NCBI GenBank assembly: GCA_049325415.1
Contig: JBMOLL010000040.1
Coordinates: forward strand, 11,859-75,858
Length of the DNA stretch: 64,000 nt
Origin: Bacteroidota bacterium
GTDB taxonomy: Bacteria; Bacteroidota; Bacteroidia; Bacteroidales; GCA-2748055
Direction: 5' to 3'
The translations under genes were made by a program, and so were the position numbers. Shown here piece by piece: positions 6,501 through 55,306 of this stretch. The notes under the pieces were generated by a model. It was not told the DNA's origin. It was given only the letters and a program-made list of their open reading frames with translations, and ran no database searches. The stretch's first letter is position 1; the number at the start of each line of letters is the position of its first letter.

Positions 6501-6689
6501 CGCAAGGCTGTAATCACCGTTGAAGTCTGTAACTGTACCGACCGTGGTTCCTTTCACTGCCACGGATACACCGGGCAGGGCGGTACCGTCCTCGGAATTG
6601 GTTACGTTACCCGTAATTTGTACACCCTGTGCCATCAGATTGTATCCGACAAACAACAGGAGTGACAACATGAAAACAAATCTTTTCAT
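3588..6689 (-). CDS. SusC/RagA-family TonB-dependent outer-membrane transporter
   Basis: 1033 aa. Has a signal peptide, a carboxypeptidase-regulatory-like N-domain (QITGNVTNSEDGTALPGVSVAVKGTTVGTVTDFNGDYSL), a plug (DEVVVTALG...ITILKGPNAAALYGSRASNGVIVITTK) and a C-terminal aromatic beta-barrel end (FNVSFKF). Confidence 0.95.
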   Translation of the reverse strand: MKRFVFMLSLLLFVGYNLMAQGVQITGNVTNSEDGTALPGVSVAVKGTTVGTVTDFNGDYSLAVPANATTLVFSFVGMTPKEETIGGRTLINVELVPEAKALDEVVVTALGLSREKKALSYAVQDVSGDEISQAKETNIINSLQGRVAGAQITNTSGAVGASSRIILRGVTNLGANNQPLFVVDGIPISNDNFGGTGNEGTNKGNGAGDINPDDIASITILKGPNAAALYGSRASNGVIVITTKSGADKKALGVTVNNTTSFETPLRLPDFQNGYGQGSQGKFSFVDGAGGGTNDGTDESWGPQLDAGLMIPQYNSPVDEFGNREATPWVSQPNNIRGMFQTGVTTSTNVAMMGGNDKANFRLSYTQLNQKGMVPNTDYNKKTISWNASANPSSKLTISTSGQFVNANSGNMPEYGYSAENIMQQFMWSGRQVDYPGLREYTNPDGTKYNWNYNYHNNPWFTLYENLNTLDRDRFIGNAQVRYQITDWLSAYVRTGGDYYSNLSTYRRAVGDMDFPSGFYSENLSTYSETNSDFLFMFQKAFGEDFEVSLNAGGNRMDRRTQFNYGEASELAVPGVYNVKNSKVALVADNGKTLKRVNSLYAFGQIGFKRAIYLDFSLRNDWSSTLPDGNNSYLYPAVSASAVLTDLLDIQSNTLNFAKVRIGYAEVGGDTDPYSLIPTVAFGDGWNASTKLLNLAVPNNMPNAELRPQKTKSTEAGIEARLFASRVRANLTLYSSQSIDQIISIPVSPATGYTSKNVNAGRIDNKGIELELGLTPVQAGKFSWDININWALNRNEVVELADGIDQYQLGSYWSMYIMAIPGEKYGSLYGYDFARDDNGNIIYENGLPTQGDLKILGSYTPDWTGGISNEFRFGNLYMSALIDMRQGGDIYSMTTTWGRYAGVLEETLLGREGGIVGDGVMVGPDGSYVPNDVVVSAENFNKSAYVNDVAWSSVFDASYIKLREIRLGYTFDIKNSPVKDVNVSLVGRNLAILKTSVPHIDPETAFADGNVQGIEFGQLPSARSLGFNVSFKF

Positions 6690-6754
6690 AGATTAAAGTT
6701 TTAGGTTTATACATTTAGTAATAGGAAAAAATGACTCTACAATTGCCAAAACTA
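6678..6754 (-). promoter_or_regulatory. Promoter and 5' leader of susC-1: -7 box TAGTTTTG, conserved TAGAGTCATTTT, conserved 22-nt leader before the ATG
   Basis: On the minus strand, 6754-6747 reads TAGTTTTG, matching the Bacteroidetes TAnnTTTG -7 consensus. Seven nt further on is TAGAGTCATTTT (6739-6728). 6678-6711 is 34/34 identical to 15475-15508 upstream of the second susC. Confidence 0.6.
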
Positions 6755-7144
6755 AAGAAAAAACGGAAAGAAAAAAATAATCAGCCGCGAAATATCCGGA
6801 TGCTGTTGCTAAACAGTATGTTTATAACTTTGAAAACGAAGGGATTAAATCTTCAAAGCAGCAATTCAGGAATTACATATTTTCAGTAATTTTTATTGTT
6901 TTACAAAAAACAGTAATCTGATCAGGTAAATTTATTGCGGATTAAAATAAAATACGCGAATGAAACTGCAGATTTTAATTTCCCTGTGTGAGGTATGAGA
7001 GAGCCAGATCCTCCGTCCTTGACATAAACAGGCTAACGTACTGTATTTCATAGATTTAATTGGATATAAAAACAAGACGCCTGCCTTTTCCGGTGCAGGA
7101 ATAACAGCACGAAAAACGGCAGGCATTTGTAGTAAAGCCCGGGC

Positions 7145-8839
7145 TTAATGAACTACCAGCAGGTGATCATAAATCCTGTTCAACCCGTCGCTGACAAGTA
7201 CAATATAGCTACCGGCCTGAAGCTCGCCGGTGTTCAGTTCAAGTTCATCGGCAAAGGGTCTTTGAAGGATAAGCTGACCCGTAACCGAATATATTTCAAG
7301 TGAACCTGAAGGAATTTCGCCCCTGGTGTCGATGCGTACCATACCTGAAGCAGGATTCGGACTCAGCAGCGGTAAACCGGCAGAATGCAGCGAAAGACCA
7401 GTCGTGTTTTGTACTACTTCATTAAGACTGATGTTAAATTCCTCAAAATAGAAATTTCCGGCGGTATCACTGACCTCGATACGGAGGAAGCGGTTTGTAC
7501 CATCGTCATATTCAAGAGTGGTCAAAGTCTTGAGGGAATCATTCTCAATATAGAATTCAGAGGGACCATAGCCTCCTTCTTCTCCGATGAAAAGATTGAA
7601 GGGCCCTTTACAAACGATATCATAGACATTACCTTCCATTTCATCCAGGATCGTAACTTTTCCAATAAAAGCTCCCGGTTCAAGGCCTTCATCAATACTG
7701 GTATTAGAAATTTCGATGTCATATGGTCCGGCATCGGGTGGCCTGATCCCAACAATGGCAGCCTGGTTTGCATTAAAGGAATAACTTCCCGGTGAAAGGG
7801 TGTTTATGGTATACCAGTCGTTATATGCACCCGACCAGCCCCAGTTAAGATGAAAGTACTCACCTCCCACCCCGTCAATATTGAACGCATGGCCTGCAGT
7901 ACCATCTCCCGGATTACCGGAATAAATAATCGGCCTTCCTGCCAGAAGTTCATTTGTCAGCAGTTCGATCCATTCCTGCTCATTCTCATAGCGCCCAACA
8001 CTTTTGGCAGTTGCAGAATAATTAAAATAGGTCTTCAGTGAACCCGCGCATTTACTGGTCTGAGCGCCAGAGCCATCGGGACCAAAATCCATATCCACGG
8101 TAACCGCACAGTGATACAGCAACTTTGCATTGTAATCATCTGAAGATGAAAGGCTCATCTGATCCCAGTCATATGGCTCCTGCATATCGAAATTCACAGA
8201 AACCGAACCATAGGTATTGTGTATATAGCTGGCTGTTCCCGTTCCTTTTGAAGGATACTGGTAGACCGACATGGCCTGCGCCTGCGCAACAGCCACACAA
8301 CCAACATAGGTATGACCTGAGGGGCCATCCTGATCTTCGGGGCAGAAGCGGTTCCAGCCGCCTCCCTGATCCCATTTGACTTTTATAATCGGGTCTACCT
8401 GGGCCTCGGTACTTTTCCTGGCAGAACCAGTGGCCAGTTCTTTCCATTCCCTGTTCTCCGGTAACTGGTCGGCAAGCTGAAGGGATCTCTCAATCTGTTT
8501 CTCGTAACCGCTCATCCAGTCTTTCTTGTTTTCGGGCCATAATTCCCTGGGTTGCCACTGGCTGTCGGGCGAATAGCCGATCACAGGCTTCAGTATGTCA
8601 TCGGCGGAAACAAGGATCCAGCCAGCGGGCTTTAACGAAACCACGTAATACGCCAGTTCCCCACCGGGAAGCCGGTACTCCGTTACCTCACCGGCAGAAT
8701 GATTCTCAGCAAAGCCATGGGCCTGCATAAAATTTATGGCAATCTCCAGAGCCTGTGTTCGGTTCACAGGTTTTCCCCACGACCAGACAGTGATCAGAAG
8801 TATGGCAATCGATATCAGAAACCTTTTCATTACACGCAT
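7145..8839 (-). CDS. C10-family (streptopain-like) cysteine peptidase with N-terminal inhibitor-type prodomain and T9SS C-terminal sorting domain
   Basis: Catalytic Cys context YVGCVAVAQAQAMSVY and His context GHAFNIDG. Prodomain-like KPVNRTQALEIAINFMQAHGF. C-terminal sorting domain SPNPASGMVRI...LEIYSVTGQLIL...LQAGSYIVLV. I moved the start from 9022 to MRVMKRFLISIAILL (8839; 8830 is also possible), which gives a signal peptide and removes the overlap with the upstream terminator and gene. Confidence 0.85.
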   Translation of the reverse strand: MRVMKRFLISIAILLITVWSWGKPVNRTQALEIAINFMQAHGFAENHSAGEVTEYRLPGGELAYYVVSLKPAGWILVSADDILKPVIGYSPDSQWQPRELWPENKKDWMSGYEKQIERSLQLADQLPENREWKELATGSARKSTEAQVDPIIKVKWDQGGGWNRFCPEDQDGPSGHTYVGCVAVAQAQAMSVYQYPSKGTGTASYIHNTYGSVSVNFDMQEPYDWDQMSLSSSDDYNAKLLYHCAVTVDMDFGPDGSGAQTSKCAGSLKTYFNYSATAKSVGRYENEQEWIELLTNELLAGRPIIYSGNPGDGTAGHAFNIDGVGGEYFHLNWGWSGAYNDWYTINTLSPGSYSFNANQAAIVGIRPPDAGPYDIEISNTSIDEGLEPGAFIGKVTILDEMEGNVYDIVCKGPFNLFIGEEGGYGPSEFYIENDSLKTLTTLEYDDGTNRFLRIEVSDTAGNFYFEEFNISLNEVVQNTTGLSLHSAGLPLLSPNPASGMVRIDTRGEIPSGSLEIYSVTGQLILQRPFADELELNTGELQAGSYIVLVSDGLNRIYDHLLVVH

Positions 8840-28436: not shown

Positions 28437-29471
28437 CTACTGGTACCGCCAGCGGTTTGCCAGAGCCACCAGAGAAAGCATAACGGGCACCTCGACCAGA
28501 ACCCCGACTACAGTAACCAGGGCCGCAGGAGACTGGAGACCGAAAAGGGAGATAGCCACCGCAACAGCCAGTTCAAAAAAATTACTTGCTCCGATCATGG
28601 CAGCCGGGGCACAAACCGGATAAGGCAGAGCAAGTTTCCTTCCTGCAAACCATGTGAGCAGGAAGATAAAAAATGTCTGGATAATAAGTGGCACTGCAAC
28701 GAGCAGGATGATCAGGGGACTTTCAAGGATCTTCATCCCCTGGAAGGCAAAAAGAAGAATAAGGGTCAGAAGAAGAGCCACAATGGAGACAGGTCTGAAC
28801 AGGGGCAGAAATTGGTGACGGAACCACTCCTCCCCTTTTTTCCTGATCAGGAGCCTGCTGGTAATGAATCCTGCGGTCAGCGGTATCACCACGAAAGTCA
28901 CCACGCTGGTAATCAGCGTGCCTACCGGTATATGAATATTGGAGATTCCCATGAGAAGGCTGACAATAGGAACAAAGGCAATGAGGAGAATCAGATCGTT
29001 TACCGACACCTGTACAAGGGTATAATTTGGATCTCCGTCGCTGAGGTAACTCCAGACAAAGACCATCGCCGTACAGGGAGCGGCTCCCAGAAGAATCGCT
29101 CCGGCGAGGTATTCCCCGGCCTGTTCAGGCAGGATCCATGCCTGGTAGACTTTTGTAAAGAAAAGCCAGGCAAAAAAAGCCATTGAAAAGGGTTTGATGA
29201 GCCAGTTCACGGTGACGGTCAGAAGCACACCCCTGGGTTTCCTTGCAACATTTTTCAGGGTGGTGAAATCAACCTGGAGCATCATCGGGTAAATCATCAG
29301 CCAGATCAACACCGCAACGGGCAGGTTCACCCCGAAAAGTTCCATTTTGCTCATACTGCTGACTGCCGATCCGCCGTAACGCCCGACAACAATTCCGGCC
29401 CCGATACATAAAAGAACCCAGAGGCTCAGATATTTTTCGAACAAGGCGATCCTTTTGCTTTCTTTTTTCAT
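28437..29471 (-). CDS. acr3: Arsenite efflux transporter, ACR3 family
   Basis: 344 aa. LFEKYLSLWVLLCIGAGIV...LIWLMIYPMMLQVDF...LTVTVNWLIKPF, as in ACR3/ArsB(BART) proteins. Confidence 0.9.
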   Translation of the reverse strand: MKKESKRIALFEKYLSLWVLLCIGAGIVVGRYGGSAVSSMSKMELFGVNLPVAVLIWLMIYPMMLQVDFTTLKNVARKPRGVLLTVTVNWLIKPFSMAFFAWLFFTKVYQAWILPEQAGEYLAGAILLGAAPCTAMVFVWSYLSDGDPNYTLVQVSVNDLILLIAFVPIVSLLMGISNIHIPVGTLITSVVTFVVIPLTAGFITSRLLIRKKGEEWFRHQFLPLFRPVSIVALLLTLILLFAFQGMKILESPLIILLVAVPLIIQTFFIFLLTWFAGRKLALPYPVCAPAAMIGASNFFELAVAVAISLFGLQSPAALVTVVGVLVEVPVMLSLVALANRWRYQ

Positions 29472-29542
29472 AGGAAGGGTCTGGAAGTAATTATACCTTA
29501 TACAGTTAATGGACAGGCAGGTTGAAATGCAGCCCAGGTTTC

Positions 29543-29560
29543 TTTCTCATTTCTGAGAAA
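29543..29560. promoter_or_regulatory. Perfect 7-bp palindrome TTTCTCA-tttc-TGAGAAA in the arsM-acr3 gap (operator or small hairpin)
   Basis: Read directly. It lies in the only sizeable gap (95 nt) of the ars operon. Confidence 0.35.
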
Positions 29561-29566
29561 TAATAT

Positions 29567-30361
29567 TTACCGGCTACCTGTCAGGGTTATACTCATAATT
29601 CGATGGGCAGAACGCGTGTAATCCGTAAGTTCCCGGTCTGTCAGATACTCCCGGAGCACCTTTTCCGGGATGGAAATCACCCTTTCCTCCAGGATGGCTA
29701 TCCCTTGAAAACCGACATCCGAAATAAGTTCCATGTATTCAGTCTTAACCAGAGCCCCTGAAACGCACCCTGCATACAGGGTGGCGACCTCTTTCAGCCG
29801 GGCCGGCAGCCCGCCCGAAAGTACAACATCGGAAATGCAGAACTGCCCACCCGGTTTAAGTACCCTGTATATCTCACTGAATGCCCTTCTCTTGTCGGGT
29901 ACAAGATTCAGAACGCAGTTGCTGATCACCACATCAAAACTATGCGGTTCGAAGGGCATATTTTCAATATCCCCCAGTATAAAATTTACATTAGCGTACC
30001 CTGTTTTCTCCAGATTCTCATTGGCCTTTTCAAGCATGGCTTCTGTAAAGTCGAGCCCGGTGACCGTTCCACTCCCGCCTGTCAGTGACCGTGCGACAAA
30101 ACAATCATTTCCTGCGCCACATCCAAGGTCCAGCACATGATCTCCTGTTTTAATCGCAGAATACCCAACCGGTAGTCCGCAACCCAGACCGTAGTCGGCC
30201 TCCGGCTGATAGCCGGGTGAATCGGAATATGATCCTCCGGTCATAGAAAAGCCGGAGGTACCGCAGCAATTTACTGTGCTGCAACAACCGGTATCCGAAC
30301 CCCTTTCTGCAACGATACTGTACTTTTCCTTTACCAGGAGCTTCAGTTCTTCAGGTTTCAT
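29567..30361 (-). CDS. arsM: Arsenite S-adenosylmethionine methyltransferase
   Basis: 264 aa. Cys-rich N-terminus (GCCSTVNCCG), SAM motif VLDLGCGAGNDCF, SNCVLNLVPDK. Confidence 0.9.
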   Translation of the reverse strand: MKPEELKLLVKEKYSIVAERGSDTGCCSTVNCCGTSGFSMTGGSYSDSPGYQPEADYGLGCGLPVGYSAIKTGDHVLDLGCGAGNDCFVARSLTGGSGTVTGLDFTEAMLEKANENLEKTGYANVNFILGDIENMPFEPHSFDVVISNCVLNLVPDKRRAFSEIYRVLKPGGQFCISDVVLSGGLPARLKEVATLYAGCVSGALVKTEYMELISDVGFQGIAILEERVISIPEKVLREYLTDRELTDYTRSAHRIMSITLTGSR

Positions 30362-30783
30362 AGTAGCGGTAATATCTCTTTGGAATAAAAATCCAGAAAA
30401 GCTCTTCTGATCTCCTCCCTGACCCTGATGAACTCGCTTTTGATAAAGTCTTCATCCCCGGTAGCCTTTGACGGATCATCGAAGCCGATATGCAGTTTTT
30501 TCTTCACCCTCCCGTTGAATACCGGGCAACTTTCCCTGGCATCGTCGCAGACGGTCACCACAAAATCCCATTCCTGATCCAGGAATTTCTCCACCGGGTT
30601 CGGCCAGTGCTCTGAAATATCAATACCGGTCTCTCCCATCACTTCTATCGCCATCGGGTTCACTCTTTCGGCCGGTTCGGTACCGGCGGATGCAACCAGG
30701 ATCTCGGAATCAAAAAACTGCAGGAAACCATGGGCCATCTGGCTCCGGCAACTGTTTCCCGTACAAAGAATTAATATTTTCAT
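30358..30783 (-). CDS. arsC: Arsenate reductase, LMW-PTPase type (thioredoxin-coupled)
   Basis: 141 aa. P-loop CTGNSCRS plus the Cys pair in TVCDDARESCP (7-residue spacing, as in the Cys82/Cys89 relay of pI258/Bacillus ArsC). ATGA overlap with arsM. Confidence 0.9.
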   Translation of the reverse strand: MKILILCTGNSCRSQMAHGFLQFFDSEILVASAGTEPAERVNPMAIEVMGETGIDISEHWPNPVEKFLDQEWDFVVTVCDDARESCPVFNGRVKKKLHIGFDDPSKATGDEDFIKSEFIRVREEIRRAFLDFYSKEILPLL

Positions 30784-30857
30784 AACTGAATTTTAGACGA
30801 ATTCCCGAAGATACAATAATACAATCTGCGGTATATCAAAAGAATGTTAATCCTCCG

Positions 30858-31637
30858 TTAAGGATGGATCTTAAGGTACAGGCCACCCAGCAATTCCCTG
30901 TACCGGGTCCTTATCTCCTCCTCGGCCGGTACCATGGGTTTTACCGGTACCAGATCAGTAAGCTTTTCATAGGAAAGTCCGGCATTAAAGTAGGTTTCCA
31001 TCGTACCTTCCAGCATTTCCTTCACTGCGGTAAAAGCCTCTTCCCTGCTCATACCGAAGCCAATGGCAAGATCAAGCAGTTCCTGGAACTGGAACCAGAA
31101 ATAGGTATGTCCCATGGCACTGATCATGGCATATGCCTCGAGCAGGTCCTCTCTGACCTCGGGCATCGCCCCCAGGGGGCTGAATAACTTCAACAGGTCT
31201 TCTTTGACGGCCTGTCCGGCTTCAGGATGAAAGGCCACCGGGTTAAAACCCTTACAAGAATATGAAGCGGCATTGGGGATCATGCGGGCGATCCGTGTAT
31301 GGCCCGGGAGTGCCCCGGAAAGTGCCTGAAGGGTAATCTTAGGCGCAAGTGACAGGACCAGGGCATCCTTCTTAATCAAATGGGATATTTCCCCCAGACT
31401 GCCTGACAGAACAGGAGGGTGAAGAGCCAGCAATACAAGGTCAGAACCGGCAGCTGCAGCCGGATCGGTAGCAGAAACACTTACCCGGGGAAATTCCTTT
31501 TCAAGTAAGGTAAGAACCGGCAAACTGGTGTCGTAGACACTGATCTGCCCTGTTTTAACACCGGCCTTTTCAAATCCTTTAAGCAGGATGGTGGCAACCC
31601 GGCCTCCACCGATGAATCCGATTGATTTCATAACCAT
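30858..31637 (-). CDS. Pyrroline-5-carboxylate-reductase-family NAD(P)H oxidoreductase embedded in the ars operon
   Basis: 259 aa. N-terminal Rossmann IGFIGGGRVA and a ProC-like helical C-terminal half. Starts 3 nt after the arsP stop. Confidence 0.7.
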   Translation of the reverse strand: MVMKSIGFIGGGRVATILLKGFEKAGVKTGQISVYDTSLPVLTLLEKEFPRVSVSATDPAAAAGSDLVLLALHPPVLSGSLGEISHLIKKDALVLSLAPKITLQALSGALPGHTRIARMIPNAASYSCKGFNPVAFHPEAGQAVKEDLLKLFSPLGAMPEVREDLLEAYAMISAMGHTYFWFQFQELLDLAIGFGMSREEAFTAVKEMLEGTMETYFNAGLSYEKLTDLVPVKPMVPAEEEIRTRYRELLGGLYLKIHP

Positions 31638-31640
31638 TGT

Positions 31641-32681
31641 TTAAAGTAAAACATTAAATAAGTATCCGACAATTACAATTCCTCCGGCAACCACGCCGAC
31701 AAAGACGGCAATCAGCTGCCATTTCAGGACTTTCTTGAGGATAATGATCTCGGGAAGGCTAAGTCCGATCACCGACATCATAAAGGCGAGGGCAGTTCCG
31801 AGGGATACCCCTTTTTCGATCAGTACACTCACGATGGGAATGATCCCTGCCGCATTGGAATACAGGGGGATACCCACCAGGATGGCCAGAGGAACGGAGT
31901 ACCAGTTCCCTGCCCCGAGCGCTCCGGCCAGAAAATCATCGGGTACAAAGCCGTGGGCTCCCGCACCGATGGCGATACCGGCAATAATATAGATCCAGAT
32001 CTTTGAAACAATCTCTTTCACTGCGCTGAAACCCATATCCACTCTTTTCGACCAGCCTGGCTTCTCCTGCTCATCATCCATCTTACCTACCTTTACGGAA
32101 TACACCCAGTCGGCCACAAAGCGCTGCAGGTGCAGCTTTTCCAGGACGAACCCGGCAAGAATAGCAATAACTAGACCTGTGACCACATAAATCACCGCAA
32201 CCTTCCATCCGAAAAGGCCGATCAGCATCACAAGGGCCACTTCATTGATCATCGGGGCGGCGATCAGAAAGGAAAAGGTCACTCCCAGGGGAATGCCTGC
32301 TTCCACAAAACCCAGGAAGAGCGGAATAGCCGAACAGGAGCAGAAAGGTGTTACGATGCCCAGCAGCGCCGCCATTACATTTCCTATAAAAAGCGGCTTG
32401 CCTTCCAGTGCTTTTCTTGTTTTTTCGGGGGAGAAGAACGACCTCACAATCCCGACCAGGAAAATGATCAGCACCAGGAGGAGGAAGACCTTTGGAACTT
32501 CGTAGATAAAAAAGCGGAGAGCCTCTGTCAGGTGAGCCCCGGCTTTGAGTCCCGGGATATGGTCCACCACCAGGTCGGCCAGCTCATCGATGTACAGAAA
32601 AGCCACCACCCAGAGAGCCAGTAAAAACGGAACAGGTTTGAGTCCCGAAAACCGAAGTTTTGATAATATATTGATCTTCAT
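31641..32681 (-). CDS. arsP: ArsP-type permease (putative organoarsenical efflux)
   Basis: 346 aa polytopic protein with the TPFCSCSAIPLF motif typical of the 'predicted permease' ArsP family. Confidence 0.75.
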   Translation of the reverse strand: MKINILSKLRFSGLKPVPFLLALWVVAFLYIDELADLVVDHIPGLKAGAHLTEALRFFIYEVPKVFLLLVLIIFLVGIVRSFFSPEKTRKALEGKPLFIGNVMAALLGIVTPFCSCSAIPLFLGFVEAGIPLGVTFSFLIAAPMINEVALVMLIGLFGWKVAVIYVVTGLVIAILAGFVLEKLHLQRFVADWVYSVKVGKMDDEQEKPGWSKRVDMGFSAVKEIVSKIWIYIIAGIAIGAGAHGFVPDDFLAGALGAGNWYSVPLAILVGIPLYSNAAGIIPIVSVLIEKGVSLGTALAFMMSVIGLSLPEIIILKKVLKWQLIAVFVGVVAGGIVIVGYLFNVLL

Positions 32682-33392
32682 TTAATTAAAAATATTCCAA
32701 CTCACAATAATAAACCAGATCCCGGTACCGATGAATACGACAGCCACTATCCTTCTGAACCAGCGCTCGAATGTCCGGATCCTTTTGTACCAGTTCCCTA
32801 TGCCCTTTACCGTATAAGCCAGCAGCCAGGCAAAAAGAATAACCGGCAGACCGGTGGCTAGCGCATAGACCAGGGAGAGAAAGACTCCCGAGGTGCTCTG
32901 AACTATTAGCGGGATCATCATTCCGAAGAAAATCACACCACTGTATGGACAAAATGCAAGTGCAAAAAGTATCCCGAGCAACAAAGGACCCTGTTTGCCG
33001 CCCAGGGCAACCCTGTTGATCCAGTCCGAAAACCTTCTGTTGCCACCTGAACGCCAATGAATGATATCAAGCATAAAAATGCCAAAAACGATCAACAGGG
33101 GACCTAGAATTTTCTCACCATAGATCTGAAGCCACGACGACAGGTTGGCTGAAACGGCCGTATACCGCAGAAGAACTGCCAGTACAAAATAGGATATGGC
33201 TCTCCCCAGGGTATATATCAACCCATTGATGAAAACCTTCCTGCGGTTTTCTTCCCCGCTGCTGATAAACCCGATAGCTGTGATGTTGGTTGCCAGCGGA
33301 CAGGGGCTTATGGCCGTCATAAGTCCCAGCAATGCAGCTGAAAAGACCGGCATACTGCTGCCGGCTAACAGTCCGTTAAGTATTTCTTCCAT
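32682..33392 (-). CDS. CcdA/DsbD-like 2-Cys polytopic membrane protein (ArsG-like label in some annotations, from memory)
   Basis: 236 aa and about 6 TM segments. One Cys lies in each of two hydrophobic segments (AISPCPL and AFCPYSG), the CcdA/DsbD_2 hallmark. Confidence 0.65.
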   Translation of the reverse strand: MEEILNGLLAGSSMPVFSAALLGLMTAISPCPLATNITAIGFISSGEENRRKVFINGLIYTLGRAISYFVLAVLLRYTAVSANLSSWLQIYGEKILGPLLIVFGIFMLDIIHWRSGGNRRFSDWINRVALGGKQGPLLLGILFALAFCPYSGVIFFGMMIPLIVQSTSGVFLSLVYALATGLPVILFAWLLAYTVKGIGNWYKRIRTFERWFRRIVAVVFIGTGIWFIIVSWNIFN

Positions 33393-33396
33393 ACCA

Positions 33397-33810
33397 TCAC
33401 GGAGTCAGAAGCCGGTCGATCTCCTGTCTGAGCTTATCCCTGTACTTTTCCGGAGTCTGCCTGGCATAGAGAAAAGCTTCATTGGTCAGATTTATCTGCT
33501 TATCACCGCAGACAACCAGCAAGGTCTGACCACTGATATTAAAAGAGGCGGCTTTTGCCTTCCCCTCCTCCTCCTCAATATTATAAGAGGTGAAGGTAAC
33601 CACTTTGCCCTGATAGGACTCTACAAGCTCACGGGTAACATCTTCCACAGCCAGACAGGTGGCACAGCGACGGGTCAGGTGGAAATAATAAACTTCCACC
33701 TTCCCGGGATCCGGTGATCCGGAAACTTTAACTTCCCTGCCGGCTTCGGACTGACAGGCCGGGGTGATGGCAAGAAACAGAATTCCTGCCAGTACCAACT
33801 TCATTTTCAT
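33397..33810 (-). CDS. Exported thioredoxin-fold CxxC lipoprotein (ArsF-like label in some annotations, from memory)
   Basis: 137 aa. Signal/lipobox LFLAITPAC. CxxC in YYFHLTRRCATCLAVE. Confidence 0.65.
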   Translation of the reverse strand: MKMKLVLAGILFLAITPACQSEAGREVKVSGSPDPGKVEVYYFHLTRRCATCLAVEDVTRELVESYQGKVVTFTSYNIEEEEGKAKAASFNISGQTLLVVCGDKQINLTNEAFLYARQTPEKYRDKLRQEIDRLLTP

Positions 33811-33820
33811 TTTCTCTTCA

Positions 33821-34060
33821 TTAAAGGTTTTTGCTGATGATGCTTTTTACTTCGGTCAGGCCGGGAACCGTACCGCTTAAAACCACCTTTTCATCAATGA
33901 CCAGCCCGGGGGTCCGCATAATACCGTAGGCCATGATGTCGGAAATATCCTCCACCTTGGTGACACGGGCATCAATTCCCAGTTCCTTTACAGCCTCAAT
34001 CGCTGTTTTTTCCAATGTTTTGCACCGGGCACAGCCGGTTCCTAAAATTTTTATTTCCAT
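33821..34060 (-). CDS. Small cytoplasmic thioredoxin-fold protein (Thioredoxin_3 / redox-active disulfide protein 2 type)
   Basis: 79 aa. MEIKILGTGCARCKTLE...GIMRTPGLVIDEKVV, the classic 78-80-aa glutaredoxin-like family often seen in ars operons. Confidence 0.8.
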   Translation of the reverse strand: MEIKILGTGCARCKTLEKTAIEAVKELGIDARVTKVEDISDIMAYGIMRTPGLVIDEKVVLSGTVPGLTEVKSIISKNL

Positions 34061-34116
34061 ATATCTGTATGTTAGTTCGTCTTTCGTGAAACTACGAATG
34101 AATCGGTTAAAAAAAA

Positions 34117-34416
34117 TCAGAGTTGCATGAATTTCCGGAAGAGGCGCTGGGCTTCTTCCCAGTTCTCCCGGTTGAGACAGTATTTAATTTTCGGAGCTTC
34201 GGTCTCCCCCTGGATCAGCCCCGCATCCTTCAGTTCCTTCAGGTGCTGGGAAAGGGTCGATTTTACCACGGGCAGATCCTCCGACAGATCACCGCTGTAA
34301 CAGCAACTTTGCCGCGATAGCAGATCGATCACATACATCCGGATCGGGTGCCCGAGTGCCTTTGCATAACGTGCAGCCTTTTTTTGTTCTTCGGTAATGA
34401 TGCCCTTGACCTCCAT
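34117..34416 (-). CDS. arsR: ArsR/SmtB-family metalloregulator
   Basis: HTH ALGHPIRMYVIDLL, Cys cluster SCCYSGDL, STLSQHLKELKDAGLI. Start moved to MEVKG (34416). Confidence 0.85.
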   Translation of the reverse strand: MEVKGIITEEQKKAARYAKALGHPIRMYVIDLLSRQSCCYSGDLSEDLPVVKSTLSQHLKELKDAGLIQGETEAPKIKYCLNRENWEEAQRLFRKFMQL

Positions 34417-34417
34417 A

Positions 34418-34437
34418 TGTTCGTATTTTACCGAACA
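34418..34437. promoter_or_regulatory. Candidate ArsR operator: TGTTCG-N8-CGAACA palindrome abutting the arsR start codon
   Basis: A perfect 6-bp inverted repeat with an AT-rich 8-nt spacer, 2 nt upstream of the arsR ATG. Confidence 0.35.
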
Positions 34438-34536
34438 AAGGTAAACAAGTTCATGAAATAATAATACCTGCAATTGAGAATTTTACAGAACTTTTATTAT
34501 AATTTTGAAAGAACCAAACCTATAAACACAAATAGC

Positions 34537-35051: not shown

Positions 35052-35762
35052 TCAGCCCAGCCGGTTGATCTCTTCCAGCCTGTTGCGGTCCAGGATCTGT
35101 ACATCTTTGCCATTCAGGCCAAGAATGCCTTCCTTTTCAAATTCACGGATATAGCGTGTTGCGCTCTCAGCCGTAATGGACGCAAAATCAGCTATATCCT
35201 GCCGGCTGAGATACTGAAAGATCTCTTCCTGAAGTAATACGGGATCGGACAGGTAAAGCAGGGCCGAAGCCAGTTTACCTCGCATTTGTTTGGCCGACAG
35301 GTTATGGATCAGCTCCAGGTAACGGTTTTCACCGCTGCAATTGCGGTTCAGGATCCGCATAGCGAAGGAGGCATTCTGCATGAAGAGTTGTTTCAGCGCT
35401 GTCTTGTCGATCATACAGACAGTAGCGTCCTTAATAGCCACAGCCGAGCAGTTATATACATTTTCCCCGAAGATGGAAGAAAATGCCATAAAATCTCCCG
35501 CTGCCACGATCCGGATATTCACCTGACGGGTACGGTCGGCCTGGAGATAGATGCGAGCCAGTCCGCTGACCATATAAAGGATATACGGTGCAAAGGCCCC
35601 CTGTTTAAAAATGGTTTCTCCTCTGAGATAGGTCAGATGGGTCTTCCTGCTGTCGAGAAAGGTCTGTTCCTCTGGCAGAAGGGCCTGGAAACAATCGGCG
35701 GTTTTACCGCATTCCTGACAGCAATCGTCTTCGGAAGTCACGGGATCTTTTTTTGAATTCAC
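35052..35762 (-). CDS. FNR-type Crp/Fnr regulator with N-terminal [4Fe-4S]-type Cys cluster
   Basis: 236 aa. C15-x2-C18-x5-C24 plus C116 reproduces the spacing of E. coli FNR C20/C23/C29/C122. Has a cNMP-binding-like barrel and a C-terminal HTH (SRQDIADFASITAESATRYI). Confidence 0.8.
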   Translation of the reverse strand: MNSKKDPVTSEDDCCQECGKTADCFQALLPEEQTFLDSRKTHLTYLRGETIFKQGAFAPYILYMVSGLARIYLQADRTRQVNIRIVAAGDFMAFSSIFGENVYNCSAVAIKDATVCMIDKTALKQLFMQNASFAMRILNRNCSGENRYLELIHNLSAKQMRGKLASALLYLSDPVLLQEEIFQYLSRQDIADFASITAESATRYIREFEKEGILGLNGKDVQILDRNRLEEINRLG

Positions 35763-35961
35763 CCTGCAAAAATAAGCAGAATTGCGCTTTTCTCCCCACG
35801 GTCATGCTGTTAAACTTAAACCGGCAGGGATTAACATCCTGCTTTCTGCATTCTGACAGCCAAAAAACTGTAAAATTTCAATCCGGGAACGTAATCCAGA
35901 CAGTCAGAACATTTTTACGGGGCAAAAAAGCCGGGTAATTTTGCAGGGTAAAAATGAAGTG

Positions 35962-36306
35962 ATGAAACGAATAGCCGTACCGGTAAGCGGAAATCTTCTC
36001 AGCGAGCACTTCGGGCAGTGTGAAGCTTACAGAATTTTCGTGATCGGGGAAGATGAAGTAAGCAGCGAACGGGTTGAGATCCCTCCGCAGATGGAAGTGA
36101 GTATGCTTCCCGGCTGGGCATCAGCACTGGGAATTACCGATATCATTGCCTATCGTGTGGATAAAAGCATCATCGCACTATTTACACCTTTCAGAATCAA
36201 TCTTTTCGTGGGGATACCCCGGGAAACGCCGGAGAAACTCATCGACGATTACCTGAACGGACGACTGAAATCCGATGAGCGGATCATCTCGGAAATTATC
36301 AAATGA
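35962..36306 (+). CDS. NifB/NifX-family (dinitrogenase FeMo-cofactor-binding fold) small protein
   Basis: MKRIAVPVSGNLLSEHFGQCEAYRIF...GITDIIAYRVD fits the ~115-aa NifX-like family. ATG at 35962 chosen over the tracked TTG. Confidence 0.7.
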   Translation: MKRIAVPVSGNLLSEHFGQCEAYRIFVIGEDEVSSERVEIPPQMEVSMLPGWASALGITDIIAYRVDKSIIALFTPFRINLFVGIPRETPEKLIDDYLNGRLKSDERIISEIIK

Positions 36307-36351
36307 AATTCATATTAATCTTATTATTAATTATTTAATATATCAACAGAC

Positions 36352-36699
36352 ATGAAATTTTTAAGAACAGCCATTCATGAAATTGAGTCTGCTGCCGAGC
36401 TGCAGAAGATCATCAACGAAAATGAAAATGTAATGGTATGCTGTGGCCGCATGGGGCCCATGTGTATCCCGGTTTACGACACTATGGAAGAGCTTGAGGG
36501 AGAACGTCCCGCTATCCGTTTCTTCTCCATGGCCTTCGATTCTCCCGAATCGGCCGCCATCCGCACTGCACCGCTTTGCCGCGGTTTCATGGGCCTGCCT
36601 TTTACGGTCTATTACAAAAACGGTGAGATGGTAAAGGCCACAACCAGCATCCAGAACAGGAGCCAGATTGTCTCCATCCTCGATGAATACCTGAGCTAA
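36352..36699 (+). CDS. Atypical thioredoxin-fold protein (CCGRMGPMC in place of WCGPC)
   Basis: 115 aa. Thioredoxin-like layout (..VMVCCGRMGPMCIP...LPFTVYYKNGEMV...) but a non-canonical active site. Confidence 0.65.
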   Translation: MKFLRTAIHEIESAAELQKIINENENVMVCCGRMGPMCIPVYDTMEELEGERPAIRFFSMAFDSPESAAIRTAPLCRGFMGLPFTVYYKNGEMVKATTSIQNRSQIVSILDEYLS

Positions 36700-36768
36700 G
36701 TGTAATACAGCCATGATCCCGTTTGTCCCGCCCCTGCGGGATGAGCGGGATTTTTAAAAAACTGAAAA

Positions 36769-37698
36769 ATGGAAGAGATTTTTGATGTGATGATCATCGG
36801 CGGGGGGGCAGCCGGTCTTACTGCCGGGATCTACAGTTCCAGGGCCCGGCTCAGCACCCTGATCCTCAACGAAGGCGCCGTTGGCGGACAGATGGTTCTG
36901 ACCAATGAAATAGCCAATTACCCGGGAGTTGAAACCACCAAAGGTTACCTGCTGGCCGGAATCATGAAAGACCAGGCAAAAAGCTTTGGCTGCCAGATCA
37001 AAACCAATGTCAAAATTACGGGCTATGAGCTGGAAGGCGAAGTGAAAAAAGTTTTGCTGGAGGATGGACGGCGTTTTTCAGCCCGAACGGTGATCCTCGC
37101 TCCCGGTGGCCGCCCCCGTTCACTCAACATTCCCGGCGAGGAAGAATTCAAAGGAACCGGTATATCCTACTGCGCCACCTGCGACGGTGAGTTTTTTACC
37201 GGGAAAGAACTGGTTGTTATCGGGGGAGGAAACTCCGCCCTCGAAGAAGCCGATGCCCTCACCACCTATGCCTCTAAAGTAACCATTGTTCATCAGTTCG
37301 ACCATTTTCAGGCCTTCGAACATGCCGTTCAGGTTGCAAGGAATAACCCGAAGATTGATTTTATAATGGAGTCGGAACCCAGAGGCTTCTTTGGTAACGG
37401 CCAGCTGGAAAAAGTTGCTATCGAACACCTGCCAAGCGGGAATATCTCGGAAGTTAAGGTTGGAGGTGCTTTTATTTTCGTGGGATATCTCCCCAATACC
37501 GAAAGTCTCAAGGGTATTGTTCAGATGAATGAAAGAAATGAGATAGTGGTGGACAGCGATATGAAGACAAATATTCCCGGCGTTTTTGCTGCCGGCGACT
37601 GTATCAACAAACGCTACAGACAGGTTACGACAGCAGTGGCAGAAGGAACCATCGCGGCACTGAGTGCCGCAGAATTTCTGAGAAACCGGCCAAAATGA
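36769..37698 (+). CDS. Thioredoxin-reductase-like flavoprotein lacking the NADPH 2'-phosphate motif
   Basis: 309 aa. FAD motif VMIIGGGAAGLTAG and redox-active CATCDG. GGGNSALEEA is followed by VHQFDHFQA where E. coli TrxB and the paralogue at 54305-55306 have HRRDxFRA / VRRDELRA. Confidence 0.85.
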   Translation: MEEIFDVMIIGGGAAGLTAGIYSSRARLSTLILNEGAVGGQMVLTNEIANYPGVETTKGYLLAGIMKDQAKSFGCQIKTNVKITGYELEGEVKKVLLEDGRRFSARTVILAPGGRPRSLNIPGEEEFKGTGISYCATCDGEFFTGKELVVIGGGNSALEEADALTTYASKVTIVHQFDHFQAFEHAVQVARNNPKIDFIMESEPRGFFGNGQLEKVAIEHLPSGNISEVKVGGAFIFVGYLPNTESLKGIVQMNERNEIVVDSDMKTNIPGVFAAGDCINKRYRQVTTAVAEGTIAALSAAEFLRNRPK

Positions 37699-37713
37699 CC
37701 GGTTTATTTTTTT
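37683..37713 (+). terminator. Rho-independent terminator of the nifX-like/trx/trxR-like operon
   Basis: AAACCGG-ccaaaatga-CCGGTTT followed by A + T7. Overlaps the stop codon. Confidence 0.7.
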
Positions 37714-38296
37714 AACTGAGAATCATTTCCTCCCTCAGACGATTCAGAACAGAGGTGGTAATTCCGAGGTAAGAGGCAATCTGACTGCTCTGGGCATAAC
37801 GGAATATATCCGGTTGCTCCGAAAGCAGTTTCCGGTAACGTGCTTCTTCGGTATCGCTGAGCAGACCAATCAATCTTTGTTTCATCCTGTTATACCCGTC
37901 AAGGATCAGCAAACGGCAGAATTCCCTGAATTCAACAGAACTATGGTACCTGTTTTCGATTTCCTCCCAGGAAATCACCCAGCCCGAACACTCGGTAAGT
38001 GTCTGAAAAGTTTCAGTAGAAGGTTGCTGGGAAAAAAAAGTATTGAAATCGTTCAGAAAACATTTCGGCGAGTATATCCCTGTGGTCAGTTCAAGGCCCT
38101 TGCTGTCATTCATAAACGACCTGACATATCCTTCCTCAAGAAAATAGGCGTGCCGGTCAAGGCGCTGTTCCTCAATAAGATATTCGCCACTCTGAAAGAT
38201 AACCGGCTTGAAGCCATAGGAAATCTCCATGGCCTTCTCCCTGGAGACCTTGTAAATCGACTGGATATAGGCTATAAAGACTTTCTTGTTTGTCAT
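37712..38296 (-). CDS. Crp/Fnr-family transcriptional regulator (no Cys cluster)
   Basis: cNMP-binding-like barrel plus a C-terminal HTH (SSQIASYLGITTSVLNRLR). Start moved to MTNKK. Confidence 0.75.
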   Translation of the reverse strand: MTNKKVFIAYIQSIYKVSREKAMEISYGFKPVIFQSGEYLIEEQRLDRHAYFLEEGYVRSFMNDSKGLELTTGIYSPKCFLNDFNTFFSQQPSTETFQTLTECSGWVISWEEIENRYHSSVEFREFCRLLILDGYNRMKQRLIGLLSDTEEARYRKLLSEQPDIFRYAQSSQIASYLGITTSVLNRLREEMILS

Positions 38297-38608
38297 AACA
38301 TCCTGTTTCTGTAAGCTCATACGGTTCAATGTAAACCGCAGATCCGCATGAGTTTGTCAACACACGGAGAAACGAAATTAAAGCTTAAATTCCTATCTCC
38401 GAAAGAACAGAACAGGCCTTTGATGACGGCACCTTTTAAGGCATTGAACGCGGTATGGATGTGGCCGACCGGAGGCGGAAGTGACTAATGGATGATTGGG
38501 ATTTTAATCACACTTTTCAACATCTTAGTCACAGTTTATTAACATTTCGTCAAACCTATTTTTTCAGTCCTGGTCCGTTGAAATGAACGGTCCTGCTGAT
38601 ATCCAGGG

Positions 38609-39031
38609 CTATTTCAGTGTTTTCTTACATTCAACAATTTTCATCAGCACGGGCACCTGCTCCGGTTCCTGCAGATTGATCACCAGGGGAAGCAGTTTAC
38701 CTACCGGCGCATTCGCCCTGAACCCGCTTTTAATCGTTTCAGGGATATCCAGCTCTTCAACTTTCGGAGCCGTCTTCTCCGTAAAATAGAAAGCCACAGT
38801 TGCATAGCCGTCCCAGACCGATAACCAGCACAGGTTTTTCTTTTTAAAAAGGTGCTTTCTGAGCCAGGAATGGCCATCGCGATAATAGTTCCATTCGGGC
38901 TCAATGCCCGAATCAGGGTCTGTCAGCATCCCGGTAAATTCGCGGAATGCCGGATAGGCTTTTCCCAGTATTTTTTCCAGAAGTTCATCGGAAGGATAAA
39001 CAGCAGGGTCATTCAACAGAGGTTGTTCCAT
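38609..39031 (-). CDS. DUF3788-like small protein
   Basis: 140 aa. EPEWNYYRDGHSWLRKHLFKKKNLCWLSVWDGYATVAFYF resembles DUF3788 proteins (from memory). Confidence 0.55.
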   Translation of the reverse strand: MEQPLLNDPAVYPSDELLEKILGKAYPAFREFTGMLTDPDSGIEPEWNYYRDGHSWLRKHLFKKKNLCWLSVWDGYATVAFYFTEKTAPKVEELDIPETIKSGFRANAPVGKLLPLVINLQEPEQVPVLMKIVECKKTLK

Positions 39032-54304: not shown

Positions 54305-55306
54305 ATGGATCTTTTCAAACCTATGCAAAGCAATTCCCCCGAGGAGAAAGTAAAAAAAGAACTTATTCCCTCAGAACATTTTAAATGTCTTATCCTGGGT
54401 TCCGGCCCGGCAGGCTACACCGCAGCCATCTATGCCGCCCGAGCCAACCTTAAACCGGTGATGTACACCGGTATGCAGATGGGCGGTCAGCTGACGACCA
54501 CCACCGAAGTGGAGAACTTCCCCGGTTACCCCCAGGGTGTTACAGGACCCGAAATGATGGAAGACCTGAAAACCCAGGCCGAGCGTTTCGGAACCGATGT
54601 CCGTTTCGGCATGGCCACCGAAGTTGATTTCTCAGGAAAGGTCAAGAAAGTCGTGATCGATGAGGATAAACTGGTAACCGCCGATACCGTGATCATTGCC
54701 ACGGGTGCCACCGCAAAATACCTCGGACTGGAATCGGAAGAGAAATATAAGGGTTATGGAGTCTCGGCCTGTGCCACCTGCGACGGCTTTTTCTACCGCG
54801 GTAAGGTGGTGGCCGTGGTTGGCGGAGGCGATACGGCTGCTGAAGAGGCAACCTACCTTGCCGGGCTCGCCAAAAAGGTCTACCTGATCGTCAGAAGGGA
54901 CGAACTCAGAGCCTCCAAGGCTATGCAGAAAAGGGTGATGAACACGCCGAACCTGGAAGTACTCTGGAAGCATCAGACAAAGGAACTGATCGGCGACCAG
55001 GTGGTAAAAGGTGTGGTTCTCTGGAAAAACAAGGGTGAAGCCGGTGAGGAAACGGTGACGATCGATATCGACGGCTATTTCCTGGCGATCGGTCATACGC
55101 CCAACTCGGACATTTTCAAACCTTATATTGAAACCGACGAGACCGGATATATCAACACGGTTCCCGGAACCACCAAAACCAGCGTTCCCGGTGTTTTTGC
55201 CTGTGGCGATGTACAGGACAAACACTACCGTCAGGCCATTACAGCAGCCGGAACCGGCTGTATGGCAGCCCTGGAAGCCGAGCGTTACCTCGGTGAGCAG
55301 GACTAA
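54305..55306 (+). CDS. trxB: Thioredoxin-disulfide reductase (canonical, NADPH-dependent)
   Basis: Start moved to MDLFKP. GSGPAGYTAAIYAAR, CATCDGFFYRGK, GGGDTAAEEATYL...VRRDELRA (NADPH motif present), GVFACGDVQD. Confidence 0.92.
   Translation: MDLFKPMQSNSPEEKVKKELIPSEHFKCLILGSGPAGYTAAIYAARANLKPVMYTGMQMGGQLTTTTEVENFPGYPQGVTGPEMMEDLKTQAERFGTDVRFGMATEVDFSGKVKKVVIDEDKLVTADTVIIATGATAKYLGLESEEKYKGYGVSACATCDGFFYRGKVVAVVGGGDTAAEEATYLAGLAKKVYLIVRRDELRASKAMQKRVMNTPNLEVLWKHQTKELIGDQVVKGVVLWKNKGEAGEETVTIDIDGYFLAIGHTPNSDIFKPYIETDETGYINTVPGTTKTSVPGVFACGDVQDKHYRQAITAAGTGCMAALEAERYLGEQD

Follow-up and report, generated by a model that had tools for sequence, protein, structure and literature searches.

A 64,000-nucleotide stretch of contig JBMOLL010000040.1 from a Bacteroidota bacterium (assembly GCA_049325415.1; the whole stretch is called the window here, and positions are counted within it) contains a divergently transcribed regulator and a three-gene operon that we read as an atypical thioredoxin system, complete in itself and separately regulated, with NADH as its most likely electron donor and with a role in stress; we give this reading, taken as a whole, about an even chance of being correct. 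The operon, on the plus strand, encodes a NifX/NafY-like small protein of the Nitro_FeMo-Co superfamily (121-residue open reading frame, or ORF; 35941–36306), an atypical thioredoxin-fold protein of 115 residues that carries CCGRMGPMC (36352–36699), and a 309-residue paralogue of the low-molecular-mass (low-Mr) thioredoxin reductases (TrxRs; 36769–37698). The regulator, a protein of 236 residues from the Crp/Fnr family of transcription regulators (Pfam cNMP_binding and HTH_Crp_2), is encoded on the minus strand at 35052–35762. The window's ORF list and independent gene calls on an identical public contig agree on the five ORFs that an initial annotation had listed for this region, and all of the motifs quoted in it are present.

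In the mechanism that we infer, the divergent regulator would respond to its signal by controlling the operon for the NifX-like accessory, the thioredoxin-fold carrier and the TrxR paralogue; in the latter, the arginine pocket for the 2'-phosphate of NADPH would have been exchanged for a conserved neutral HQF..FQ pocket, with the FAD site, the CATC disulfide and the pyrophosphate motif kept. A pyridine nucleotide without a 2'-phosphate, most likely NADH, would reduce the FAD, the FAD would reduce the CATC disulfide, and this in turn would reduce the C31/C38 pair of the carrier. The reduced carrier would then serve thiol-dependent stress enzymes; in relatives these may be an OsmC-type peroxidase and a membrane-anchored thioredoxin, and in a sister clade rhodaneses and a CoA-disulfide-reductase (CoADR)/rhodanese fusion. 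The module would stand beside the housekeeping NADPH-dependent TrxB of the same window (54305–55306, plus strand; 385.5 bits with TIGR01292) and outside the neighboring ars island.

The reductase, its carrier and the NifX-like protein

Two sets of relatives were compared. A scan of species-representative genomes with the 115-residue protein returned at least 586 loci; neighborhood counts come from the 80 that were retrieved, all of which are from Bacteroidota (clade 1), and 69 of these were evaluable for gene order. The sister clade is represented by 80 metagenome loci, many of them on short contigs, from a scan in which less closely related members of the Trx-like family served as queries.

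The reductase is recognized by Pfam as Pyr_redox_2 (E 1.5e-52), and its FAD motifs (GGGAAG at residues 11–16 and VFAAGD) align with those of Escherichia coli TrxB and of the window's TrxB. The redox-active CATC is located at residues 135–138; it is kept in 62 of the 68 clade-1 reductase ORFs (the remainder are truncated) and in 32 of the 33 sister-clade reductases, the other having CVTC. At the position of VxxxHRRDxxRA the window reductase has VTIVHQFDHFQA, that is, VHQFDHFQA replaces the motif for the NADPH 2'-phosphate; this segment aligns column for column with the HRRDxxRA of solved NADPH enzymes and also with the VRRDELRA of the window's second TrxB. As claimed in the initial annotation, the three arginines for the 2'-phosphate are lost, and we find all three replaced in every orthologue of both clades. 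The pyrophosphate motif is intact (GGGNSALEEA); GGGNSALE is found in 63 of the 68 clade-1 ORFs, the other five without a match to the search pattern being probably truncated, and all sister-clade reductases have GGGNSALE or GGGNSAIE. The combination of HQF[D/N/E/G]xFQA and GGGNSALE is essentially invariant in about 100 orthologues from the two clades, and VTIVHQFDhFQAFeHA is nearly invariant even at 62% overall identity. Because the HQF motif is near-invariant across both clades, it is not explained by chance decay; the alignments indicate a site under purifying selection and not a decaying one.

The HQF-type pocket also occurs in the sister clade in a 422-residue fusion of an N-terminal thioredoxin (CPPC) to a TrxR with GGGNSAIEE and HQFDKFTA (locus L136, 5668–6936, plus strand), which is encoded beside rhodanese-type genes. 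The motif of the window's housekeeping TrxB, VRRDELRA, has Val where His is usual, yet this protein scores above the TIGR01292 cut-off; in two clade-1 loci (L051 and L080) a TrxB of this housekeeping type is located less than 2 kb from the atypical Trx-like/TrxR-like pair.

The reductase ends with ...AAEFLRNRPK, level with E. coli TrxB, so it has no extension and no Trp tail. The FF pair of the thioredoxin-binding site is present (DGEFF), and the GR/KG position of that site is G-T-G, a position that is variable in the family. The AlphaFold model of the reductase has a mean pLDDT of only 69 because the alignment is shallow; its Foldseek matches are TrxRs, the best being the FR conformation of the Lactococcus lactis TrxR, and a fold model of this kind says nothing on cofactor choice.

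These features bear on the simplest alternative, that the protein is simply a TrxB paralogue that uses NADPH as usual and tolerates a variant motif. Its best overall matches are indeed NADPH-dependent TrxRs: among solved structures it is closest to ordinary NADPH enzymes from Firmicutes and Deinococcus (best 5mh4, 242 bits in a PDB search), and some databases label the orthologues ‘thioredoxin reductase (NADPH)’. However, none of the three 2'-phosphate arginines survives in any orthologue, the TIGR01292 score (328.8 bits) is below the equivalog cut-off of 343.45, the NCBI name for the orthologues is only ‘NAD(P)/FAD-dependent oxidoreductase’, and a canonical TrxB is encoded in the same window. 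We consider this alternative distinctly improbable and place residual NADPH use by the reductase below one tenth. The models for AhpF and AhpF homologues give 256–310 bits.

The 115-residue carrier has no Pfam or NCBIfam match at E<0.01. Its AlphaFold model (pLDDT 94) is a thioredoxin fold, Foldseek aligns it with many solved thioredoxins (TM about 0.77, range 0.73–0.79, at 15–23% identity), and its GLPF is located at the cis-Pro position, aligned with GIPT; profile–profile comparison gives a probability of 91% to canonical thioredoxin, over residues 37–113 only. By its model, then, the carrier shares the thioredoxin fold without belonging to PF00085. In place of the WCGPC site (CxxC), it has an expanded C31-GRMGPM-C38 (CX6C). 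With strand beta-2 running up to C30-C31-G32 and helix alpha-2 beginning at residue 39, C31 and C38 would flank an active-site loop four residues longer than that of CGPC. The alignments conflict on whether C38 corresponds to C32 or to C35 of thioredoxin, so no more than an expanded CX6C loop is claimed for the site.

The carrier contains four cysteines (C30, C31, C38 and C76). Only C31 and C38 are shared by the two clades, and each of the 33 sister-clade loci with an HQF reductase encodes Cys38; we infer from this conservation that the two residues may form a dithiol–disulfide couple whose reductant would be the flavoprotein encoded by the adjacent gene. The other two, C30 and C76, are confined to the Bacteroidota clade, and C76 belongs to a five-residue family-specific insertion before the cis-Pro.

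The clustering of these cysteines also brings in a different explanation, in which the Trx-like protein, and perhaps the NifX-like protein, binds a metal or Fe-S cluster and the operon handles or repairs clusters or cofactors under stress, with the flavoprotein as the reductase. Such a role would agree with the conservation of all four cysteines around the active-site region in the Bacteroidota clade, with the homology of the NifX-like protein to the domain of the cluster carrier MrpORP and with the Fe-S-type cysteines of the window's regulator. We nevertheless think it unlikely: in the sister clade only C31 and C38 remain, although the reductase and its motifs are the same there, the NifX-like gene is dispensable in half of the loci and missing from the sister clade, and the neighbors found within the operon encode thiol peroxidases or thioredoxins rather than Isc or Suf components.

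In the 90%-clustered database the carrier has 5173 homologues, typically 75–80% identical, that collapse to 149 clusters at 50% identity. Family members with about 30–46% identity are also found in metagenome-assembled genomes of Asgard archaea (Promethearchaeota, Lokiarchaeota; P0284, P0285, P0176).

For the NifX-like ORF the probable start is the ATG at 35962 (MKRIAVPV...). The protein scores 18.7 bits with Pfam PF02579, under the gathering cut-off of 26.3, but it matches the MrpORP C-terminal domain in NCBIfam (E 8.9e-19) and, in the PDB, TM1290 and PH0822 (E about 4e-4; 3.5e-4 for TM1290), so that homology to Nitro_FeMo-Co at the superfamily level is supported by profile and structure-database matches. 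With the stand-alone Nitro_FeMo-Co proteins (Thermotoga maritima TM1290, PH0822) and the MrpORP C-terminal domain it shares the same small alpha/beta domain and the SEHFG motif; it differs from them in its context, those proteins having no established function and no known link to a thioredoxin system. In eight clade-1 loci a 218-residue UbiE/COQ5-type S-adenosylmethionine-dependent methyltransferase without ArsM-type Cys motifs is encoded between the NifX-like and Trx-like genes (e.g., L016, 859–1515, plus strand).

Conservation of the module and its genomic partners

The carriers among the 80 Bacteroidota loci include Bacteroidales, Marinilabiliales, Tenuifilaceae, Rikenellaceae, Paludibacter, Proteiniphilum, Mariniphaga, Maribellus and Draconibacterium. 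In 64 of the 69 evaluable loci the Trx-like gene is immediately followed by the TrxR-like gene, and an orthologous regulator is divergent upstream of the Trx-like gene in 51. The sister clade, with a carrier about 55–65% identical and a reductase 61–65% identical, has the same architecture, that is, regulator on the minus strand followed by carrier and reductase on the plus strand: a divergent upstream regulator is present in 52 of its 80 loci, and the TrxR-like gene follows in 33 of the 49 with enough downstream sequence. Since this architecture holds in both clades, the core unit is the regulator, the Trx-like protein and the TrxR-like protein. The initial annotation had counted the NifX-like protein as part of the module; its gene is upstream of the Trx-like gene in 33 of the 69 evaluable Bacteroidota loci and in none of the sister-clade loci, and it is an accessory. 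The reductase itself is missing in five loci of Draconibacterium and other Prolixibacteraceae type, in which the series NifX, Trx-like, OsmC and anchored thioredoxin is kept. The independent redox-stress module that had been offered as the second choice in the initial annotation agrees with this conservation as a unit.

Its first choice, a dedicated reductant supply for arsenate reduction by the adjacent ArsC, does not. The ars island (28437–34473, minus strand) is complete and encodes an Acr3/SBF transporter, ArsM, an LMWP ArsC, a P5CR-like F420_oxidored protein, an ArsP_1 permease, DsbD_2, a 137-residue CxxC lipoprotein, Thioredoxin_3 and its own ArsR; of note are the P5CR-like and DsbD/Trx genes inside this operon. 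The arsR gene is about 600 bp from the redox module, and the ArsC (30358–30783, minus strand) is, as annotated, of the thioredoxin-coupled type, since it belongs to the LMWPc family and has the pattern C7/C79/C86. These two facts, together with an ArsP-like gene beside the regulator (67% identity) in one of the 80 sister-clade loci and an ArsM-like gene in one, are what would favor an arsenic function. However, neither arsC nor arsR nor any other ars gene is beside the module in any of the 80 Bacteroidota loci, the island has its own regulator and its own thioredoxin, DsbD_2 and CxxC lipoprotein, and an unrelated 185-residue ORF on the opposite strand separates the two units. A neighborhood comparison, as the initial annotation had proposed, thus finds the core conserved in relatives and the ars genes not. 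Because ars genes are not conserved next to the module, the arsenic link is coincidental and the position beside the island is specific to this genome; we regard the supply of ArsC as very improbable.

The genes on the other side of the module are likewise not part of it. A second cNMP-binding regulator (37712–38329, minus strand, convergent with the operon) is present downstream, as annotated, but Pfam detects no HTH in it and no second Crp-like gene is beside the module in the 80 Bacteroidota loci; the gene for a DUF3788 protein that follows (38609–39031, minus strand) is also not conserved with the module. Within the operon, a terminator-like hairpin between the Trx-like and reductase genes (36733–36749) is no better than chance.

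The genes that do recur are informative about the physiological role. In Pfam-confirmed counts (63 clade-1 and 80 sister-clade loci), an OsmC-family peroxidase is found in 28 of the 63 Bacteroidota loci and in seven sister-clade loci, and a membrane-anchored thioredoxin with WCGPC or WCAPC in 30 of the 63 and in 43, respectively. Twelve Bacteroidota loci have a Grx-like fusion; sister-clade loci have a rhodanese (11 loci), a YgaP-like transmembrane protein (nine), a 757-residue CoADR/rhodanese fusion (eight) and an SQR-like flavoprotein (one). The CoADR/rhodanese fusion takes the place of the HQF reductase and has the NADH-type motif VVEMMP; in loci L094, L107, L117 and L148 it is located at about 4850–7200 on the plus strand, followed by a stand-alone rhodanese. 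The CoADR/rhodanese and YgaP-like neighbors suggest a persulfide or polysulfide role for the Trx-like protein. Because the recurrent partners are OsmC, anchored thioredoxins, rhodaneses and the CoADR–rhodanese fusion, a function in peroxide, disulfide or persulfide stress is indicated, and the role of the module is most likely in thiol, peroxide or sulfur stress, not in arsenic resistance.

Near the module in two unrelated loci we also observed ORFs with perfect tandem peptide repeats (VRKLQIELFGGVVA... and RSDRTIG...) that correspond to short tandem DNA repeats (L070, 7825–8178, minus strand; L082, 2349–2796, both strands).

The divergent regulator and its candidate operator

The regulator has cysteines at positions 14, 15, 18, 24, 105, 116 and 142, and the spacing C15-x2-C18-x5-C24, with C116 at +92, is an FNR-like set. 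The initial annotation saw in it an FNR-type sensor of oxygen. The cysteine pattern is real in the window's regulator, but it is not a family trait: among 53 orthologous Bacteroidota regulators in the same context, CxxCx5C is found in four and Cx5C in five, 41 have no or one N-terminal Cys, and the distal Cys (C116) is present in 46. The sister-clade regulators have a different four-Cys pattern (Cx5C, C113, C142). The score with the Fnr model is 47.6 bits (cut-off 228), and all of the NCBIfam matches are far below cut-off. Candidate signals are O2, NO, thiol oxidation and persulfide, and in the regulator of this genome an Fe-S cluster is plausible.

Nor does the DNA contain the FNR site for which the initial annotation proposed a search. 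No TTGAT-N4-ATCAA box is found in the window's intergenic region, and in the window plus 50 orthologous intergenic regions the box shows no enrichment, with matches at one or two mismatches scattered over 13 of the 51. De novo palindrome counting in the same 51 regions, with the expectation taken from shuffles, instead identifies CTGAA-N4-TTCAG (extended form AACTGAAAnnTTTCAGTT). With at most one mismatch, CTGAANNNNTTCAG is found in 15 of the 51 regions (0.45 expected) and, with at most two, in 32 (about six expected); the sites are mostly 92–133 bp upstream of the first plus-strand gene of the operon. In the window the candidate operator is AACTGTAAAATTTCAATC at 35866–35883 (core CTGTAAAATTTCAA at 35868–35881, with two mismatches to CTGAA-N4-TTCAG); it is the best intergenic palindrome match of the window, although not significant inside the window alone. 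In the sister clade CTGAA-N4-TTCAG is at background level, so the palindrome is specific to the Bacteroidota regulator, which probably binds this candidate operator in the shared intergenic region.

The regulator thus resembles E. coli FNR in its Crp/Fnr fold, in the identical Cys spacing of the window protein and in the 5-N4-5 geometry of its candidate palindrome; it differs in that the cysteines are mostly not conserved among orthologues and in the half-site (CTGAA vs TTGAT). Just upstream of the operon, TAATTTTG (35936–35943, plus strand) fits TAnnTTTG, the −7 promoter element of Bacteroidetes, and is a candidate for that element. A weak copy of the palindrome, with three mismatches, is located at 38001–38018, inside the gene for the second cNMP-binding regulator.

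Candidate electron donors

The initial annotation took the loss of HRR as the known signature of ferredoxin- or flavodoxin-dependent enzymes. That step does not hold, as TR3 of Desulfovibrio vulgaris, the T. maritima TR and AhpF also lack HRR and are NADH-linked. The published definitions of three related enzymes ask for more: FFTR (ferredoxin-dependent flavin thioredoxin reductase) and DDOR (diflavin-linked disulfide oxidoreductase) are without GxGxxA/G as well as without HRRxxxR (PMC9025218, PMC10880999), and TRi, the NAD(P)H-independent TR of D. vulgaris, has TQ/NGK in place of HRRD together with a degenerate GEGxxAxN (PMC5627308). A ferredoxin-type default would therefore also call for loss or degeneration of GxGxxA(xE), which in the module's reductase is invariant.

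The proposed comparison with FFTR and DDOR accordingly did not bear out the assignment. The low-Mr TrxR family, a kept CxxC and the loss of HRRxxxR are common to FFTR, DDOR and the reductase of the module, and the presence of GxGxxA/G in the latter sets it apart. FFTR was rejected on this ground and for want of a Trp tail; in cyanobacterial FFTR a C-terminal Trp tail is needed for ferredoxin binding (PMC8154056), and the PDB chains of the clostridial enzyme (6gna/6gnc/6gnd) are shorter, at 288–294 residues vs 309 here. DTR was rejected because the C-terminal Trp tail of DTR type is missing. DDOR, which binds a second flavin and lacks the GR/KG and FF residues for thioredoxin binding, was rejected because both GGGNSA and the FF pair are present. 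TRi is also an extra TrxR paralogue of anaerobes, the gene for which is induced by O2 and gives protection from disulfide stress; it was rejected because the reductase has HQFD and GGGNSALE instead of TQ/NGK and GEGxxAxN. In the PDB search the reductase is nearer to the NADPH-dependent TrxRs than to any of these, with 187 bits to the Gloeobacter DTR/FFTR, 116 to clostridial FFTR and 92 to D. vulgaris TRi (5nii), compared with the 242 given above. By motif and score, then, it is placed in the low-Mr TrxR superfamily but outside the NADPH TrxB equivalog, FFTR, DDOR and TRi.

What the reductase does have is the combination of the NADH-linked enzymes DvTR3, T. maritima TR and AhpF, that is, GGGxxAxE kept and the HRR arginines lost. 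In the NADH-preferring TR3 of D. vulgaris this combination is accompanied by an altered GR/KG site for thioredoxin binding, and TR3 is active only with the non-canonical Trx3 (PMC5627308). By these published motifs the likeness to the module is close: GGGxxAxE is kept, HRR is lost, the GR/KG position is altered and an atypical thioredoxin partner is adjacent, and in both cases a second low-Mr TrxR stands beside a canonical NADPH-dependent TrxB in an anaerobe. The TR3/Trx3 pair itself, an NADH-preferring TR with a dedicated non-canonical thioredoxin, was reportedly described by Pieulle in 2011 and by Valette in 2017. The differences are in the partner, which here is CX6C (CGRMGPMC) and outside the Pfam thioredoxin models whereas Trx3 is a CxxC variant, in HQFDHFQA as the 2'-phosphate motif, and in the dedicated Crp/Fnr regulator, the NifX-like accessory and the mainly Bacteroidota distribution.

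AhpF prefers NADH, and it too is a TrxR-like flavoprotein with GGGNSxxE and without the arginine pocket; its motif, GGGNSGVE...LLEFAPEMKA, was confirmed in PDB 1fl2. In the AhpF/AhpC system electrons likewise reach a thiol peroxidase by way of a dithiol carrier with a thioredoxin fold, and in many relatives of the module an OsmC gene follows the carrier and reductase genes. The carrier of the module is a separate 115-residue protein, whereas that of AhpF is a fused N-terminal double-Trx domain; the peroxidase partner is of OsmC and not of AhpC type, with none in the window; and the Glu at the end of strand beta-2 of AhpF is lacking. By analogy, the D. vulgaris TR3/Trx3 pair and a ‘split’ AhpF may be regarded as the closest working analogues. 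With GGGxxAxE kept, a full-length enzyme without a tail, a non-canonical thioredoxin adjacent and the same logic in AhpF, NADH would be the most economical donor; from the motifs we assign roughly one half of our confidence to NADH or a pyridine nucleotide bound without discrimination of the 2'-phosphate, and one quarter to a non-nucleotide donor.

Several observations weigh against the NADH-linked thioredoxin system. The TrxR of Thermoplasma acidophilum keeps GGGNSG in the PDB alignment and reportedly uses neither NADH nor NADPH, so an intact glycine motif is no proof of nucleotide use. Strand beta-2 does not end in the acidic residue typical of NADH sites (Glu in the LLEF of AhpF and also in the CoADR fusion) but in His (IVHQF). 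A membrane Fer4_5 protein is encoded in the operon of 11 of 160 related loci, five in clade 1 and six in the sister clade. More distant members of the carrier family have CGRMxPxS, that is, Ser at position 38, so a C31–C38 disulfide would not be universal. OsmC, the anchored thioredoxin and the other recurrent partner genes are absent from the window, and a full-text literature search for CGRMGPMC or HQFDHFQA found no paper.

The first three of these points are also the case for the non-nucleotide donor, that is, for a reductase independent of pyridine nucleotides with ferredoxin, flavodoxin or another Fe-S or cofactor protein, perhaps the NifX-like or the membrane Fer4_5 protein, as donor and with HQFDHFQAFEHA as its docking surface, to which we give about one chance in four. 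In addition, all three arginines are lost with no acidic residue to compensate, and conservation extends past the pocket and along the helix that follows (QAFeHA..EA); half of the loci co-transcribe a gene for a NifX-like cofactor-binding protein, and the hosts are mostly anaerobes with ferredoxin-based metabolism. The Fer4_5 protein (165–182 residues, with Fer4_5 and dicluster 4Fe-4S motifs, NapH/CcoG-like; L008 at 5458–5985, L015, L021, L049 and L080; L082 at 5995–6492, L084, L092, L099, L128 and L141) could be an alternative entry point for electrons, and its occurrence in these operons makes an Fe-S donor conceivable. Nevertheless, the reductase has the invariant GxGxxA and lacks the Trp tail and the TRi motif, its scores with FFTR and TRi are far below those with the NADPH-dependent enzymes, no ferredoxin or flavodoxin gene is conserved in the neighborhood of the related loci, and the Fer4_5 gene is confined to the few operons listed and absent from the window. 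If that donor were correct, the pair might be a previously undescribed class of thioredoxin system, widespread in anaerobic Bacteroidota, in which HQFDHFQAFEHA docks a donor other than NAD(P)H, the CX6C carrier feeds OsmC or persulfide carriers, and the reductase represents a fourth independent lineage of NAD(P)H-independent low-Mr TrxRs; we regard this class as possible, with a similarly modest share of our confidence.

For genome annotation, the module indicates that ‘loss of HRR’ is by itself no sufficient ground for calling an enzyme ferredoxin-dependent, and the invariant HQFDHFQA would make a clean test case for the evolution of cofactor specificity in the TrxR family. Bacteroidota are usually described with one NADPH-dependent TrxB that serves several thioredoxins, and the module would be a second, separately regulated system for disulfide reduction; it is widespread, with the loci in species genomes joined by thousands of metagenomic sequences, and no curated domain model captures its carrier. 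Should OsmC or persulfide carriers be the targets, the module would supply their missing physiological reductant; with NADH or a low-potential protein as donor, stress defense in these anaerobes would be uncoupled from the NADPH pool.

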